A program made the position numbers and the translations under genes. Below are positions 1-25,869 of a DNA stretch of 27,698 bases, in pieces (the first letter of the stretch is position 1; each line of letters opens with the position of its first letter). The DNA comes from a virus (Duplodnaviria; Caudoviricetes): IMG/VR virus record IMGVR_UViG_3300017911_000217, positions 1-27,698 of that record; one strand, 5' to 3'. The notes under the pieces were generated by a model. That model was given only the letters and a program-made list of their open reading frames with translations. It was not told the DNA's origin and searched no databases.

Positions 1-465
1 ATCCACCACGCGGGTAAGGACGCATCGAGGGGCATGAATAGTATGCGCGGCTCAAGCGCGCTGGCTGGTGCGGCTGATACCGTACTGGCGGTGACGAAGA
101 CAGAAGACACCGTCACAATGGGTATGGACAAGCAGAAAGACGCTGATCCAATCGAGCAGATGACCTTCGAGATGGTGAACATCGGCATGATTGGCGACAC
201 ATCTGTGGTCATGAAACAGCACCGAGCCGAACCCGAAAAGAAGCGACCGAGGCTGTCTCCGAGGCAGTCAGATGCGCTTCGCGTACTGCAAAATATGCTC
301 ATTGACACACGCGAAAAGCAGGTGCGGATCACCGCTTGGCAGGACGAACACAAGCGTCAATTTCCAGATTTGTCGCCCGGCAACCGCCGTGATGCGAGAA
401 ATGCCCTGTGTGATAAGCGTGTGATCGTGCAGGCAGATGGGAATGTATGGATTTCAAGGGATTAG
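1..465 (+). CDS. AAA_25/RepA-type SF4 helicase (primase-helicase), C-terminal part, 5'-truncated by the window
   Basis: Frame 1 is open from base 1: IHHAGKDASRGMNSMRGSSALAGAADTVLAV matches the HHxxK...RGSSAL..AAD motifs of RepA/AAA_25 helicases. It is followed by a short C-terminal domain. The track start at 34 is an internal Met. Confidence 0.85.
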   Translation: MHHAGKDASRGMNSMRGSSALAGAADTVLAVTKTEDTVTMGMDKQKDADPIEQMTFEMVNIGMIGDTSVVMKQHRAEPEKKRPRLSPRQSDALRVLQNMLIDTREKQVRITAWQDEHKRQFPDLSPGNRRDARNALCDKRVIVQADGNVWISRD

Positions 466-2626: not shown

Positions 2627-2822
2627 CTTTCCTAGTCGTCATTTTGTGCGCTTCTTCTCTGATCCTATCATGTGTGATACCTGCGGTCACGACACGCCCG
2701 GCTATGTTTATGAGGGTTCGGGCATGATTGTCTGTCATGTGTGTGAAGATGTCATGTTGCACCTTGAGACTGAGCGCGAGGTGTTTTTTATTTTTGAGGG
2801 TAGCGATGGCGAGAGCGAATAA
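2610..2822 (+). CDS. Small zinc-ribbon protein
   Basis: ATG 2610 with AAGGA upstream; CDTC...CHVC (two CxxC motifs); overlaps both terS and terL. Confidence 0.65.
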   Translation: MATVINFPSRHFVRFFSDPIMCDTCGHDTPGYVYEGSGMIVCHVCEDVMLHLETEREVFFIFEGSDGESE

Positions 2823-4359
2823 TGCAACCGATAGGTCAACACGGCGGCGCAAGCAGAAGGGGCTTGAGGCGTTAGAGGGGTTGAGCCTTGATTTTTCAGA
2901 AAGTCCAACGGTATGGGATTTTTTAAACGACAATTCATTCGTGCGTGGCCTAATGGGGCCAGTTGGTTCAGGCAAGACTTATGCTTCACTTGCGGAAGTG
3001 ATGTTGAGGGCTGTGAAGCAACCGCCTTCACCTGTGGACAACACGCGCTATTCCAGATTTGCAGTGATACGAAATTCCTACCCGGAATTGAGGACGACCA
3101 CGATCAAGACTTGGCAGGAGATATTTCCTGAGAATGTGTGGGGTCAGATGCGCTGGTCGCCACCGATCACCCATCACATCAAGTTGCCGCCCCGGGATGG
3201 GGCGGCTGGCCTTGATTGTGAGGTGATCTTTCTGGCTCTCGATCAGCCGAAGGATGTGCGGAAGTTGCTATCGCTTGAACTGACAGGCGGGTTTATTGAT
3301 GAAGCGCGTGAACTGCCAAAGGCGGTGGTTGATGGCTTGACATCGCGTGTGGGTCGTTATCCGACCAAGCGACACGGTGGTTGCCCTTGGCGCGGTGTGT
3401 GGATGTCCACCAACCCGATGGATAGTGACCATTGGTGGCCTAACCTTGCGGAGAAAAACCCGATCAAGGGCAAGTACCCTTGGAAGTTTTACAAGCAACC
3501 GGGCGGTGTGATCGAGGCGACCAAAGAGCATGACGACACGATCTATGCCGCAAATAAGCATTGGATACAAAATCCGAAGGCGGAGAACATTAATAATCTG
3601 CCGCCGGGCTATTACGAACAGCAGTTGGCAGGCAAGACGCTGGATTGGATTAGTTGCTATGCGGCGGCTAAGTATGTCTATGTGCAGGACGGTAAACCTG
3701 TCTGGCATGAATTTACCGACACGCTGATGTCTGATGACTTGGAGATTGAGAAGGGTATGCCAGTGCATATCGGGCTTGACTTTGGTTTAACGCCTGCGGC
3801 TGTGTTTGGGCAGAAGATGCCGAATGGTCGCTGGCACGTTGTGCATGAATTGGTGGCGTTTGATATGGGGCTTGAACGGTTCTGTCATCACCTGCTTGCG
3901 GATATTGAGACACACTTTCCCGGCAGTGAAGTATTTATCTGGGGTGACCCGGCTGGCGTAAAGCGCGATGAAATCTTCGAGGTGACCGCGTTTGAGCATA
4001 TGCAAACACTTGGTTTGCGCGCTCAACCGACCGCATCGAATGATTTTATGGTGCGGCGCGAGGCTGGTGCTATGCCGATGAATAGGTTGATTGATGGCAA
4101 GCCGGGCTTGCTGGTTGATCGTTCATGTTCAAGGGTGCGTAAATCTTTGGCTGGTGGCTATCACTTTAAGCGTGTCGCTATGGGTGGTGGTCAGGAACGG
4201 TTTAGAGATGCGCCTAATAAAAACGAACATTCGCACGTTGGCGATGCGTATGGCTATCTGATGCTTGGCGGCGGTGAGCATAGGTCGCTGACGCGCAACA
4301 GTGTGGGCCGCCAGCAGTTTAAACAGTTTACTGCGGCCAGTGATTTTAGCGTCTTCTAA
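2806..4359 (+). CDS. terL: Terminase large subunit
   Basis: Walker A GPVGSGKT, Walker B GFIDEARE, coupling motif STNP, nuclease motifs GLDFG and NEHSHVGDA. Start re-called at ATG 2806 (GAGGG upstream). Confidence 0.96.
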   Translation: MARANNATDRSTRRRKQKGLEALEGLSLDFSESPTVWDFLNDNSFVRGLMGPVGSGKTYASLAEVMLRAVKQPPSPVDNTRYSRFAVIRNSYPELRTTTIKTWQEIFPENVWGQMRWSPPITHHIKLPPRDGAAGLDCEVIFLALDQPKDVRKLLSLELTGGFIDEARELPKAVVDGLTSRVGRYPTKRHGGCPWRGVWMSTNPMDSDHWWPNLAEKNPIKGKYPWKFYKQPGGVIEATKEHDDTIYAANKHWIQNPKAENINNLPPGYYEQQLAGKTLDWISCYAAAKYVYVQDGKPVWHEFTDTLMSDDLEIEKGMPVHIGLDFGLTPAAVFGQKMPNGRWHVVHELVAFDMGLERFCHHLLADIETHFPGSEVFIWGDPAGVKRDEIFEVTAFEHMQTLGLRAQPTASNDFMVRREAGAMPMNRLIDGKPGLLVDRSCSRVRKSLAGGYHFKRVAMGGGQERFRDAPNKNEHSHVGDAYGYLMLGGGEHRSLTRNSVGRQQFKQFTAASDFSVF

Positions 4360-4383
4360 AAGAAAGCCCCGCCGAAGCGGGGC
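4358..4383 (-). terminator. Intrinsic terminator oriented on the minus strand
   Basis: Minus strand reads GCCCCGC-TTCG-GCGGGGC-TTTCTTTT: 7-bp GC stem, C(UUCG)G loop and U-tract. On the plus strand the stem is followed by AAG, so it is a poor plus-strand terminator. Confidence 0.85.
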
Positions 4384-4420
4384 AAGTTTAGGGAGGATAA
4401 ATCATGAAAAAACATGATGA
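4358..4420 (-). ncRNA. Putative ~60-nt small RNA with anti-Shine-Dalgarno UCCUCCC motif
   Basis: Lies between the minus-strand promoter (4426-4453) and terminator (4358-4383). Predicted sequence UCAUCAUGUUUUUUCAUGAUUUAUCCUCCCUAAACUUGCCCCGCUUCGGCGGGGCUUUCUUUU forms three hairpins. Confidence 0.65.
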
Positions 4421-4463
4421 ACCTAATTATAGGCCAATGAACGATGCAGTCAATACTAACTAA
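4404..4463 (+). CDS. Possible 19-aa leader peptide MKKHDEPNYRPMNDAVNTN
   Basis: Strong SD GGGAGGA (4391-97) 6 nt before ATG 4404; overlaps the GNAT start. It may only be the mirror image of the sRNA. Confidence 0.25.
   Translation: MKKHDEPNYRPMNDAVNTN
4426..4453 (-). promoter_or_regulatory. sigma70-type promoter, minus strand
   Basis: -35 TTGACT (4453-4448), 16-nt spacer, -10 TATAAT (4431-4426). Confidence 0.7.
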
Positions 4464-4908
4464 CAAGAAAGTCTCGCTTGTGCCGTTTCATTGGGCGCAC
4501 GTTAAGATGATGGAATTGCGGCCATTTGATGACAATCTTGTGAAGACAATGCCACATTTTGATGAACGCTTGCAGTATTACCAGCAAGAGGGCGGCATGA
4601 CTGCGGTATCCAGTGGCAAGATTGCGTGTTGCTTTGGTGCTGTACCCTTGTGGCCGGGCGTGGCGGAGTGCTGGCTGATCACCGCATATCAAGTTGAGCG
4701 CACACCGATAACGCTAACGCGGTCAGCAATGCGGTATTTCGATCAGTGTGCTATCGACATGAAATTGCACCGATTGCAGATCACAGTTGATAGCCGCAAT
4801 GTGCTTGCAATGCGGTGGGCAGTTGGGTTAAAATTCGGAGCAGAAGGCACGTTGCGGCAGTATGGCCACGACAAGTCAGACCACGTTTTATTCGCAAAGG
4901 TTTATTGA
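4444..4908 (+). CDS. GNAT-family acetyltransferase-like phage protein
   Basis: CFGAVPLWPGVAECW...LHRLQITVDSRN..AMRWA..LKF..EGTLRQYG.D..D is a RimJ/RimL-like GNAT pattern. Confidence 0.85.
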   Translation: MQSILTNKKVSLVPFHWAHVKMMELRPFDDNLVKTMPHFDERLQYYQQEGGMTAVSSGKIACCFGAVPLWPGVAECWLITAYQVERTPITLTRSAMRYFDQCAIDMKLHRLQITVDSRNVLAMRWAVGLKFGAEGTLRQYGHDKSDHVLFAKVY

Positions 4909-8413: not shown

Positions 8414-8433
8414 TCACAACAAGACCTTACGCG

Positions 8434-8465
8434 AGGCTGGGTGTTTACACACCCGGCCTTTTTCT
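8434..8465 (+). terminator. Intrinsic terminator after the scaffold gene
   Basis: AGGCTGGGTGT-TTAC-ACACCCGGCCT followed by TTTTCT. Confidence 0.75.
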
Positions 8466-8472
8466 GTATATT
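8444..8472 (+). promoter_or_regulatory. Putative sigma70-type promoter for the capsid gene
   Basis: -35 TTTACA (8444-49), 17 nt, -10 TATATT (8467-72). The predicted start near 8479 coincides with the first leader hairpin. Confidence 0.55.
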
Positions 8473-8478
8473 TGTCTT

Positions 8479-8564
8479 GACAGATACCCGACCTTCGGCC
8501 TGTCGCCCACGTTTGGGGGCGTGACGTTCATGCCCAAGTGACAGCCCTGCTTGCAGGATACCTG
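8479..8564 (+). promoter_or_regulatory. Structured 5' leader of the capsid mRNA
   Basis: Hairpins GACAG-ATAC-CCGA-CCT-TCGG-C-CTGTC (8479-8504), GCCC..GGGC (8505-20) and CAG-C-CCTG-CTTG-CAGG-ATAC-CTG (8542-64). Confidence 0.6.
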
Positions 8565-8604
8565 ATGCGATCTCAACTTTAACTTTGTTCAATAGGAGTA
8601 TGAA

Positions 8605-9441
8605 ATGGCAGTTGGCATTTCTTCAGCCTTTGTTCAGTTGTTCGATGCCGAGGTCAAGCAGGCATATCAGGGCGCACGCGCTCTGGCAGGCGTGACACGC
8701 GAGCGTAACAATGTCGAAGGCAATCAGGTGAAATTCCCGAAGATCGGGAAAGGCACTGCAACAGTCCGCGTACCGCAGACTGACGTAACCCCGCTTAATG
8801 TGACCTACTCACAAGTGTCGGCCACAATGAGTGACTACATCGCCGCTGAATATAGCGACATCTTTAATCAGCAAAAAGTCAATTTTGACGAACGCCGTGA
8901 ATTGGTTTCTGTCGTTGGTAGCGCAATTGGCCGCCGTATGGACCAGTTGGTTATTGACGCAATCAATGCCGCGTCTTCACCGTCAACCGTTGGCACAAAC
9001 ATTGGTGGCACAGGCACAAACATGAACCTTGCCAAGTTGCTCGCCGCTAAAAAGGCAATGGATGCCAAGAACGTACCTGCTGAAGGTCGTTGCATGATCA
9101 TCCACGCCAACAACCTCTCAGCACTGCTGGACGAAACAGAACTGACATCAAGCGATTTTGCTACCGTCAAGGCACTGTCAACTGGTGAAATTGATACCTT
9201 CTTGGGCTTCAAATTCATCACAATCGGTGACCGTGACGAAGGTGGCCTGCCGCTTGCTTCAGGTGTTCGTACTTGCTTGGCCTTCCACCGCGATGCGGCT
9301 GGTCTGGGCATTGGCATGAACCAGAAGTCTGAAATCAACTATGTTCCTGAGAAGACATCGTTCCTCGTTGCTTCAATGTTCTCCGCTGGTGCGGTAGCCA
9401 TTGACGATGAAGGCATTGTCAAAATCTCAGCGACTGAATAA
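8605..9441 (+). CDS. Major capsid protein
   Basis: SD AGGAG at 8594; 278 aa; FVQLFDAEVKQAYQ, AIGRRMDQLVIDA, SSDF..VKAL..GEIDTFLGFKF, IDDEGIVKI (BPP-1/HTVC010P-type MCP pattern); follows the scaffold. Confidence 0.93.
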   Translation: MAVGISSAFVQLFDAEVKQAYQGARALAGVTRERNNVEGNQVKFPKIGKGTATVRVPQTDVTPLNVTYSQVSATMSDYIAAEYSDIFNQQKVNFDERRELVSVVGSAIGRRMDQLVIDAINAASSPSTVGTNIGGTGTNMNLAKLLAAKKAMDAKNVPAEGRCMIIHANNLSALLDETELTSSDFATVKALSTGEIDTFLGFKFITIGDRDEGGLPLASGVRTCLAFHRDAAGLGIGMNQKSEINYVPEKTSFLVASMFSAGAVAIDDEGIVKISATE

Positions 9442-23174: not shown

Positions 23175-23351
23175 ATGGAAGATATGAATGTTACATCAGC
23201 ACAATACAACGCTATTGATGGGGTCAACGGCTCAATCACAGCAGTCATTGACGGAGAAACACTATCTGTACCAATGGACACAGCGAACAGACACTACCAA
23301 GCAATCTTAGATTGGGTGGCAGACGGTAACACAATACAGGATGCAGACTAA
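23175..23351 (+). CDS. 58-aa tail-fibre assembly chaperone-like protein
   Basis: Hand-translated MEDMNVTSAQY...VPMDTANRHYQAILDWVADGNTIQDAD; GGAG upstream; stop overlaps the next start. Missing from the track. Confidence 0.75.
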   Translation: MEDMNVTSAQYNAIDGVNGSITAVIDGETLSVPMDTANRHYQAILDWVADGNTIQDAD

Positions 23352-23815
23352 TGGCTTATATCGGGGTCGCTCCCTCAAGCGGTTTATTTAAGAAACTAGA
23401 CAGCATCACCACGGTTAATGCACAGGCCGCATACACGATGCAGTACAACAGCAGTAACTTCAAGCCAGCGACTGCTGAACAACTTATTGTGTCTGTAAAC
23501 GGTGTCATCCAAGCACCCAATGATGCCTACACCATTAGCGGTAGCACCATCACGTTCTCAGAGAACCTAGTCACTGGTGATGTCATTGACTTCATCGTGG
23601 CTCTGGGCGAGGTGGGTAACACAGTCACGCCTGTTGATGGCTCAGTGGATGTAAACAAGATGTCAGCCAGCATCATGAAAGATGCAGCGATTAGGGTAAA
23701 CGACACAAGCCTAACGAATGATGTTACAATAGCATCAGATGAAAACGCTATGGTGGCTGGCCCATTTACCGTATCGGCTAACCTCACAGTAAACGGAGTG
23801 TTGACCATTGTCTAA
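23351..23815 (+). CDS. Tail fibre adaptor-like protein
   Basis: MAYIG...VSVNGVIQAP..AYTISGSTITF (paralogous to the 21205 N-terminus); ends ENAMVAGPFTVSANLTVNGVLTIV. Confidence 0.75.
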   Translation: MAYIGVAPSSGLFKKLDSITTVNAQAAYTMQYNSSNFKPATAEQLIVSVNGVIQAPNDAYTISGSTITFSENLVTGDVIDFIVALGEVGNTVTPVDGSVDVNKMSASIMKDAAIRVNDTSLTNDVTIASDENAMVAGPFTVSANLTVNGVLTIV

Positions 23816-24314
23816 GTTATACGTTGATGAACTACAGCCAAAGACATCTGGCGGTATTATTAAAAACCCACAACTGCCTGTTGCTACCGTTAGTTTAACC
23901 AGAGGCAACCCTGATGATGCAACTGACCCTTACTCACCAGCGCAAGGTACGGTCATTAAGTTTGACCAAGTGTTGATTAACAGGGGCAACATTTATGACC
24001 CGACAACTGGAAGGTTTACTGCCAATCAAGCAGGGGCTTGGGAGTTTACTGGTGCTTTTATGACAGGAACAACAACAAGCACCAATCACAGTCTTAAATT
24101 TTATAAGAACGGTAGCACATCAGACCCTTTCACAACTGGCATTACCAGAGCATACAATGAGGTAGATAGTCTTTTTGTTATGATGCCAGTTAATTTTGTT
24201 CTTGAATTAGAAAAAGATGATTACATCACTGCCATTTTCTGGGCTGGCGAGTTACATATAGATGTTGCAGGTGCGGCGGCATACAACAGTGCAACCTTTA
24301 AGTTTCTTGGATAG
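23808..24314 (+). CDS. C1q-like domain protein
   Basis: TTG start with GGAG upstream; IKFDQVLINRGNIYDPTTGRFTA...G.WEF...KNG...LELEKDDYI. Confidence 0.8.
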   Translation: MSKLYVDELQPKTSGGIIKNPQLPVATVSLTRGNPDDATDPYSPAQGTVIKFDQVLINRGNIYDPTTGRFTANQAGAWEFTGAFMTGTTTSTNHSLKFYKNGSTSDPFTTGITRAYNEVDSLFVMMPVNFVLELEKDDYITAIFWAGELHIDVAGAAAYNSATFKFLG

Positions 24315-24323
24315 GAGTAAACA

Positions 24324-24842
24324 ATGGCAAGCATCATAGGCGTTGAAACGCTCCAACATACAAACGGCACTACAGCCGCTACGATTGACAGCAGTGGTCG
24401 TATTCTGCAACCTGCCAAACCAGCATTTAATTTGCAAGGCAACAATTCAAACAATAAAAGTGTGGGTGACGGTGAGGTTTTTGGTGCTACAGATGATGGT
24501 CAAGCGGCTTTTAAAACTTCTGGCGATGGCGCATTTTTACAGGGCGGGATAACATATAATTCTGCTACAGGTGAAATCACCGTTCCTGTTGCTGGTGTCT
24601 ATTATTTATGCGGTATGTTTTATATGAATCAGTCATCTATTGCTCAAGTTACAATAAGACAAAACGGTGCAATTAGGGCGAGAAACTATGATGGTTCAAG
24701 TGCTGTAGGGTCTATGGAGTTGAGCATTGTTTTAAATCTTAATGCCAACGATAAGATAACATATCAACAAGATTCTGGGGCGACTAGAACATTTTACGAA
24801 GGCGCACAACACACATATGTATTTGGCGCACTATTAGGATAA
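24324..24842 (+). CDS. C1q-like domain protein
   Basis: KPAF...YNSATGEITVPVAGVYY...QNG...VLNLNANDKI...FGALLG. Confidence 0.8.
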   Translation: MASIIGVETLQHTNGTTAATIDSSGRILQPAKPAFNLQGNNSNNKSVGDGEVFGATDDGQAAFKTSGDGAFLQGGITYNSATGEITVPVAGVYYLCGMFYMNQSSIAQVTIRQNGAIRARNYDGSSAVGSMELSIVLNLNANDKITYQQDSGATRTFYEGAQHTYVFGALLG

Positions 24843-24852
24843 GGAGAGCGGG

Positions 24853-25338
24853 ATGACTTCAGTATTAAAAGTAGACAACATCCAGAACTCATCTGGAACA
24901 AATGCGCTTAGCATTGACAGCAGTGGTCGTATCCTTACTCCAGCAAGGCCAGCGTTTGCGGCTCGCACCAGTGCTACTACAGGCGCAACATCTACAGTTA
25001 AGTTTGGAACAGAAATTTTTGACCACGGCGGTAACTACGACACAACAAACTATCGTTTTACAGCCCCGATTGCTGGTCTTTATTTCTTCGAGGTTCACGT
25101 TTTGACAGAAAGAAGCACAGCCATATATGAAGTCTCGATAGATTTAGAAAAAAACGGCACTATTTTTGAGCGTCTTTATTCTGCTAAAGGAGACGCTTCT
25201 AATCACCATCTAGAGATTCGAGGTTCTACTTTAGTAGAGTTAGCCGCAAATGATTACGTTGATGTGTATAACAATTCTTCAAGAAGCATTATCACTTCAG
25301 ACAAGCATTGTATATTCAATGGCTACCTAATCGGATAG
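24853..25338 (+). CDS. C1q domain protein
   Basis: RPAFAA...VKF....DHGGNYDTTNYRFTAPIAGLYFF...KNG...VELAANDYV.V...FNGYLIG (canonical C1q signature). Confidence 0.88.
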   Translation: MTSVLKVDNIQNSSGTNALSIDSSGRILTPARPAFAARTSATTGATSTVKFGTEIFDHGGNYDTTNYRFTAPIAGLYFFEVHVLTERSTAIYEVSIDLEKNGTIFERLYSAKGDASNHHLEIRGSTLVELAANDYVDVYNNSSRSIITSDKHCIFNGYLIG

Positions 25339-25347
25339 GAGACTGAT

Positions 25348-25869
25348 ATGGCACTTACACGAATAAACAATCAGGCTCTTACCGATGTGACAGAATTGCC
25401 AGCAAACGTAGATTTGCAACGCCCTGTAGTTACAGCAAGGAAAGGTTCTCCGCAATCTATCACTCGAGCAACTTGGACAAAGGTAACTGGCTTTACAACC
25501 AATGAGCATGACAGCCACAGTGCTTGGGATGGAAGCAAGTTTACTGTGCCATCAGGCCAAGCGGGTCGATACCTTGTTTCTTGCTTCTTGTATTTAGACT
25601 TTACAGATGCTGGTAGCGATGGAGAGCAAGCCAGAGGTGCAATTTATATTAATGGTACTTTAAATGCCATATTTGGCGGTTTGTCTATGGCTAATGGTGG
25701 TCGTCATATATATTACCACAATTCTACAGGTTCTCTTGTTTATGACTTAAGTGTTGGGGATGAGGTTGAGTTTTACGCTTATATGCAAGACGATACCGCA
25801 AGTGGCACTTTATATGTACACGGTGGGCCTACCAACGGCTCACAGATTGGCATTTCGAGGATTGATTGA
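25348..25869 (+). CDS. C1q-like domain protein
   Basis: DSHSAWDGSKFTVPSGQAGRYLV...IYING...DLSVGDEVEFY. Confidence 0.75.
   Translation: MALTRINNQALTDVTELPANVDLQRPVVTARKGSPQSITRATWTKVTGFTTNEHDSHSAWDGSKFTVPSGQAGRYLVSCFLYLDFTDAGSDGEQARGAIYINGTLNAIFGGLSMANGGRHIYYHNSTGSLVYDLSVGDEVEFYAYMQDDTASGTLYVHGGPTNGSQIGISRID

Follow-up and report, generated by a model that had tools for sequence, protein, structure and literature searches.

Between the genes for the large terminase subunit (terL) and a GNAT-like protein, the genome of a marine tailed phage (Duplodnaviria; Caudoviricetes) carries on its minus strand a compact cassette that, judged by comparison with related phages, is real and conserved and is predicted to be a small RNA gene. 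The RNA family concerned, alpha-R8, is a known one, and what is new is the predicted phage-internal target: across relatives, as far as sequence comparison can tell, the unpaired region of the RNA varies in step with the start region of the phage primase-helicase gene. On balance, the small RNA would seem to act as a brake on the lytic programme of the phage by pairing with ribosome-binding sites of phage mRNA. The original prediction had proposed a phage-encoded small RNA gene with an anti-Shine-Dalgarno (anti-SD) motif and a host-type promoter, and this much is supported by conservation over about 23 lineages.

The window, meaning the whole stretch of 27,698 nucleotides analysed here, is a linear virus record of 27.7 kb estimated to be 82% complete, in which the end of a primase gene is followed by terS, terL, the GNAT-like gene and then portal, scaffold, capsid, tail and lysis genes. 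The 3' end of the primase-helicase gene (1-465, plus strand) is recognised by PHROG and AAA_25 matches and aligns at 45% identity with residues 479-624 of a full-length relative; the window does not reach back to the start region of the gene. Directly after its stop codon, positions 475-574 harbour five exact 8 nt direct repeats with inverted arms, at spacings of 10, 10, 12 and 60, which are likely to represent the iterons of a replication origin. On the same strand, terL occupies 2728-4359 (true start probably 2806) and the GNAT-like gene 4444-4908; the latter matches PHROG 4177/308, is annotated as 'putative acetyltransferase' in relatives and has no Pfam match. The nearest cultured terL is that of the OM43 phage MEP301 (63%), in which terL overlaps the acetyltransferase gene with no insert between them, and a search for a host among cultured relatives at this distance gave none. 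Further downstream, the non-coding leader of the capsid gene, around 190 nt long, combines a plus-strand terminator with an overlapping 10/12 promoter-like site (8433-8605), and five consecutive tail-fibre-related ORFs of similar size, three of them matching PHROG 15750, span 23351-25869 and possibly form an array of receptor-binding tips.

The cassette begins with a predicted sigma-70 promoter, located where it had been proposed on the minus strand: the -35 box TTGACT (4453-4448), which indeed falls within the first codons of the GNAT ORF (codons 2-4), is separated by 16 nt from the -10 box TATAAT (4431-4426). It scores 11/12 and is the sole site to do so among the 43 promoter-like sites found in the window by two scans (21 + 22). 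With the 5' end placed from the -10 box, the predicted product is an alpha-R8/MmgR-type small RNA of about 62 nt (4358-4419, minus strand). This stretch folds at -21.7 kcal/mol (z -6.2), and none of 200 shuffled sequences was equally stable. Fold prediction recovers the anticipated 5' hairpin as a weak structure of 6 bp (4418-4401), followed by a predicted single-stranded pairing region (4400-4384) comprising a 9/10 match to the alpha-R8 decamer (4399-4390) and then an ACUU linker (4387-4384). The intrinsic terminator (4383-4358) is likewise as described, with a 7 bp GC stem (4383-4366), a UUCG loop and, on the minus strand only, a U tail overlapping the terL stop codon. The exception is the middle hairpin UUUA-UCCUCCC-UAAA, said to present the motif in a loop: its 4 bp stem is not predicted, CUCC is unpaired at a probability of 1.0, and the anti-SD stretch is modelled as a single-stranded linker rather than a loop. 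A composite pattern of these parts, made post hoc from the observed arrangement, occurs once in the window and in none of 100 shuffled versions. One RNA run contained 5% of the window's words, and its contigs left 4304-4772 uncovered, so that it bears neither way on expression.

The letters of the RNA cassette also contain plus-strand features that were absent from the original prediction. A strong SD-like sequence (4390-4397), the exact complement of the RNA seed, precedes a 19-codon upstream ORF (4404-4463, ATG at 4404) that overlaps the start of the GNAT gene by 20 nt; it is a possible coupling leader for GNAT. Across lineages, such ORFs vary in length from 3 to 19 codons and are sometimes the GNAT gene itself. 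A start codon follows the plus-strand SD in 12 of 22 lineages and is missing from the other 10 despite the presence of the motif; in six of the 22, the start is in frame with GNAT or the stop of the ORF lies within -4 to +8 nt of the GNAT start. GNAT's own SD is weak in most lineages. In the sister clade of the window phage, the cassette SD starts GNAT itself at loci L054 and L057, and at L058 and L146 an ORF with a stop codon overlapping the start of GNAT. It is likely that the cassette SD serves GNAT or a coupled upstream ORF in the window's clade.

Among 137 distinct terL junctions, terL lies directly next to GNAT in 77, 39 have an insert of 69-139 nt, 10 contain a small gene and 11 have no GNAT in reach. 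The 10 small-gene junctions also have the cassette just before GNAT, showing it to be tied to the 5' end of that gene. In total, the cassette was found in 57 of 168 distinct GNAT-upstream regions (over 549 loci), representing 23 lineages. All 39 short inserts have a minus-strand terminator; CUCC is present in the 26 nt before it in 35 of them, and in 16 of 20 lineage representatives compared with a shuffled mean of 3.7, and ACU directly precedes the terminator stem in 48 of 56 cassettes. Hairpins of differing sequence occupy the position of the 5' hairpin in most relatives. A minus-strand promoter scoring at least 9/12 was detected in 14 of 20 lineage representatives but in only one of 77 cassette-free junctions, with control frequencies of 2/20 on plus strands and 11% in shuffled sequences. 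The window's clade (three loci) and the sister clade (six loci) both retain TTGAC, although its codon phase differs between them, and it occurs in 4/77 cassette-free junctions; its retention across codon phases implies that the constraint acts on the DNA. Promoter, motif and terminator orientation, the features whose loss in related phages had been named as grounds for abandoning the idea, are thus conserved over about 23 lineages.

A phage moron is a unit with its own promoter and terminator lying between genes that are immediate neighbours in related phages. Since terL and GNAT are directly adjacent in 77 of the 137 junctions and in MEP301, the cassette is, on sequence criteria, a moron-like unit without a protein gene. 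On a quick terL tree, the labels of which undercount cassettes, the short-insert label has to change six times, and inserts are present in the deepest rows, which sit on long branches. Several variants were observed. The cassettes of L127, L130 and L385 have a U-rich seed without CUCC, and in L385 the primase SD also lacks the usual GGAG, with the RNA-primase pair still ranking 2 of 18. L003, L104 and L113 appear to encode two-seed RNAs, with a second anti-SD motif in the 5' hairpin loop. The insert at L139 (2304-2384) has a terminator and no C/U seed, and that at L195 (888-1028) has a terminator plus an extra hairpin showing the motif in its loop. In G040 (L256, 3939-5791), terL and GNAT are separated by a primase gene that ends at the cassette terminator, an arrangement suggesting that the replication block moved while the cassette stayed with GNAT; the primase gene is also close to the GNAT gene in L455, L394 and L355.

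A search of the whole window against Rfam at the gathering cut-off gave no matches. The proposed Rfam check nevertheless identified a best match, RF00519 (suhB/MmgR), which was also the best in L003; at 28.8 bits in the window, it stood below that family's cut-off of 41 bits. Of 20 loci, nine gave an RF00519 match at the cassette, and two related phage cassettes pass the cut-off at the same position (42.1 and 42.6 bits); in the first of these to be checked, the match lies directly before GNAT. The alpha-R8 decamer, matched at 9/10 positions in the window, is perfect in L141, the nearest distinct relative, and among 56 cassettes it is matched at 10/10 in two and 9/10 in nine. As outlined in PMC12559287, alpha-R8 RNAs combine a terminator with a single-stranded 10 nt core after a weak hairpin. 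The window RNA has both the 3' Rho-independent terminator and a weak hairpin upstream of the core; its neighbours are terL and GNAT rather than the FGase gene linked to the main chromosomal alpha-R8 copy, a linkage that alpha-R8 paralogs also lack. On the basis of sequence, the RNA is of alpha-R8 type and probably homologous to alpha-R8, without being a formal member.

This assignment departs from the models originally named, cuckoo/alpha-r14 and AbcR, and from the suggestion of an undescribed regulatory system, as alpha-R8/suhB/MmgR is a described family. Cuckoo or alpha-r14 RNAs are defined by two or more stem-loops, each with the motif in its loop. That identity was rejected for the phage RNA, which has a single motif in an unpaired linker, no repeated stem-loops and no ar14 match; neither ar14 nor any other of the named families was among 19 Rfam matches (one same-clan overlap having been suppressed). 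Three RF00519 matches of about 20 bits in cassette-free phages lie antisense inside a coding gene and were discarded as chance. A sequence-only model built from 24 cassette cores found no second cassette copy in 39 sources, though it is insensitive, giving 10 matches and missing known cassettes. RNAalifold on eight transcripts produced no usable consensus, the alignment being poor. A literature search, with subscription papers mostly outside its scope, found neither a phage-borne alpha-R8 RNA nor a small RNA aimed at primase.

The primase-helicase gene, identified in relatives through AAA_25 and primase/helicase PHROGs, was chosen as a target post hoc, after a screen of the start regions of all genes in 11 genomes. 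In 14 phages with both parts, the predicted duplexes of cognate pairs beat the row and column means by 3.4 kcal/mol (p<1e-5). Uninterrupted complementarity over at least 8 nt was seen in 6 of 14 cognate cells compared with 3 of 182 non-cognate cells. For example, three close relatives each have a different 8-mer before the primase ATG, in each case matching their own RNA, and in a further relative an 11 nt match ends at the ATG. Among 23 gene families, cognate pairing is strongest for primase (z -4.7). The signal holds with 18 cognate pairs (p<1e-5) and with one pair per lineage (11 lineages; median p 0.00045, maximum 0.0056). Four pairs added later, of which one belongs to a lineage already represented and two are linked by contig overlaps of 99.95-100%, gave on their own a mean residual of -2.9 (p 0.048). 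With opening energies included, the cognate mean was -6.3 compared with -3.0, and the lineage p at most 0.0026; all of these energies are predictions, and the lineages are not independent. Of the 18 pairs, three do not show the effect, namely those of L395, L427 and the G001 prophage. GNAT ranks second of the 23 families (z -4.6; with true starts, residual -1.3, p 0.015), but was left out of the evidence for trans pairing because the low-energy rows are those in which the start region and the RNA overlap. The next non-overlapping family, YqaJ/RecE, reaches z -2.35 and was also set aside as a second target, with no clear match in 10 of the 12 loci that have the gene.

A counterpart in cis exists in the leaders of the primase genes themselves. 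Of 84 distinct primase leaders, 62 contain a hairpin of at least 9 bp; in 41 of these the loop includes CUCC and is complementary to the SD region of the same leader. Pairing of this loop with downstream tandem SD-like sites is a candidate SD-hiding pseudoknot. Where both regions are known, CUCC is present in a primase-leader hairpin loop in 16 of the 22 relatives without the cassette; the other six form a distant group with a plain terminator in the primase leader and neither element. Among cassette-bearing relatives, 11 of 15 lack the primase-leader loop and four have both, these counts of cassette versus leader loop being phylogenetically non-independent. L318 also has neither element. In L268, L289, L405, L420, L447 and others, a very stable leader hairpin lies 20-60 nt upstream of the primase ATG, and in L268 and L289 its loop contains a perfect alpha-R8 decamer.

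No contig extending the 5' end of the window phage's own primase gene was found. The closest relative by primase, L447 (81%), carries the in-cis loop; it ranks 42 of 78 for the window RNA and shows no specific match. In the sister clade, in which both elements are present, accessible primase pairing is 0 in two of four pairs and non-specific in the other two. None of the start regions inside the window pairs well with the RNA (best real one -10.7); a site at 450-470 (-16.6) was dropped, as it coincides with the primase stop and repeat region and makes an implausible start. Together, the weak primase pairing in the sister clade and the cassette SD feeding GNAT suggest that the cis role at GNAT may dominate here, such that in the window phage action on the GNAT leader may be as important as, or more important than, action on primase.

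One relative (66% terL) is a prophage in the Hyphomicrobiales MAG G001, with both an integrase and the cassette. It is around 35 kb long (G001:C36, about 63,600-98,900; L236, L135, L237) and is flanked by a metallo-beta-lactamase-fold gene and by mazG-hflX-hfq-ntrX-ntrY. The MAG therefore has hfq, and also its own 69.7-bit mmgR adjoining an FGase gene. The best match of the prophage RNA is to the start of the first gene (YqaJ-like), not to primase. Sub-threshold second alpha-R8-like copies of 31-34 bits were seen in three alphaproteobacterial MAGs: L224 (G001:C16), L225 (G002:C32) and L226 (G003:C83). Of the cassette-bearing relatives scanned, three have a serine resolvase-like gene, all have a RecE-like gene and one has an integrase.

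These observations point to phage targets: primase-helicase in trans, which the original prediction did not include, and, in some lineages, the leader of GNAT in cis. Under the proposed mechanism, host RNA polymerase would transcribe the RNA from phage entry onward or in the prophage, and host Hfq would bind its U tail. The RNA would then block translation of primase-helicase in trans and, where the cassette SD serves GNAT or a coupled upstream ORF, block these in cis. More speculatively, the RNA could accumulate in proportion to genome copies, like the copy-control RNAs of plasmids, and be soaked up by late mRNA extending through the cassette, producing a switch. A broader scenario, offered tentatively, is that marine podophages of a widespread group took over a host small RNA of carbon and nitrogen status and re-aimed it at their own primase-helicase. 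The same anti-SD element would act either in cis, as a leader pseudoknot, or in trans, as an Hfq-type RNA, with lineages having switched between the two and RNA and target co-evolving base by base; the late transcript would be a sponge in a protein-free switch for replication or dormancy, which may also listen to host MmgR and its sponge.

Alternatively, the RNA might mainly act as host MmgR or SisA does, repressing mRNAs for uptake and carbon storage (such as those of TonB-dependent receptors), which could lower superinfection. As the principal function this is unlikely, although the 9/10 match to the host decamer and the failure of the G001 prophage RNA to match its own primase leader would both fit. 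Precedents also exist: SisA and SuhB repress TonB-receptor and other mRNAs through the seed (PMC12559287; bioRxiv 10.64898/2025.12.09.693200), and a prophage small RNA that lowers lamB is known (PMC12803456). The seeds, however, drift from the host decamer, which is perfect in only two of 56 cassettes, and this drift tracks the phage primase leaders. Targeting of host mRNAs is in any case compatible with a brake on phage genes, the two not being exclusive.

The cassette could instead work in cis only, as a plain antisense RNA or convergent transcription unit for the GNAT leader and late genes, the likeness to primase then reflecting an SD style shared within each genome. The position of the promoter on the GNAT start, the weakness of GNAT's own SD in most lineages, and the plus-strand starts found in 12 of 22 lineages and linked to GNAT in six give this idea some appeal, and it fits the window's own clade best. 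Yet it is improbable as a general account, given that 10 lineages have the motif without a plus-strand start, that a perfect antisense RNA needs neither a conserved seed nor an ACUU linker, and that the cognate signal is missing from other gene families, the next non-overlapping one being that at z -2.35. It seems very improbable that no functional RNA is made, with the insert being a plus-strand ribosome-binding site or leader for GNAT plus a terminator that keeps spurious antisense transcription out of terL. The SD and upstream ORF do exist in the sequence, but such an insert would not account for a minus-strand promoter conserved only where the insert is (14/20 versus 1/77), across two codon phases, for the alpha-R8 linker in 48 of 56 cassettes, or for two relatives above the Rfam cut-off. 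An SD and small ORF covered by an antisense RNA also recall a type I toxin-antitoxin system, in which the 19-aa peptide would be the toxin and the RNA the antitoxin. This is scarcely credible: the peptide is polar rather than the conserved small hydrophobic protein expected of such toxins, and the corresponding ORFs, which 10 of 22 lineages lack, differ in length (3-19 codons) and in some cases are the GNAT gene.

To our knowledge, nearly all phage small RNAs studied are from enterobacterial, Vibrio or Pseudomonas phages. If the RNA is indeed a brake on phage genes, a host regulatory RNA family has been re-aimed at a phage's own replication gene, and small marine phages without their own RNA polymerase would have a means of timing replication or remaining dormant that needs no protein regulator. 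It would also be an example from nature of a single control element that has shifted between cis and trans. The natural compensatory variants make the pairing of RNA and leader directly testable by swaps.

Among known systems, the closest are the alpha-R8 RNAs (MmgR of Sinorhizobium meliloti, SuhB of Sphingopyxis granuli and SisA-D of Caulobacter), which, as described in PMC12559287, share the weak 5' hairpin, single-stranded decamer (9/10), ACUU linker, terminator and size. The window RNA differs from them in being phage-borne, in having no FGase neighbour, in scoring below the Rfam cut-off and in its variable seed flanks. Furthermore, the described alpha-R8 members act on host mRNAs for metabolism and uptake, whereas the predicted target of the window-type RNA is a phage gene. 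The cuckoo/alpha-r14 (CcsR, NfeR1) and AbcR (alpha-r15) RNAs also have C/U-rich anti-SD motifs in alphaproteobacteria, but the phage RNA does not have repeated stem-loops. Constitutive small RNAs limit the translation of replication proteins in plasmids, as with CopA of R1, Inc of IncB/ColIb and RNAI of ColE2. These are encoded opposite the rep leader and complement it in full, in contrast to the short, imperfect pairing of the phage RNA with a locus several kb away. P22 sar and P4 CI are small RNAs that pair with mRNA and thereby hold back lytic genes of the phage encoding them; they are not of alpha-R8 type. The same holds for lambda OOP and aQ and for c4 of P1/P7, which, as described in PMC12197685, target the cII, Q or antirepressor mRNAs rather than a primase-helicase SD. 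Finally, AgvB and AsxR, located at lambdoid moron sites, resemble the phage RNA, as described by Tree et al. 2014 (PMC4104026), as 51-60 nt Hfq-type RNAs with their own terminator, a conserved position in the late region and variable pairing regions; they differ in being anti-sRNAs directed against host small RNAs in E. coli.
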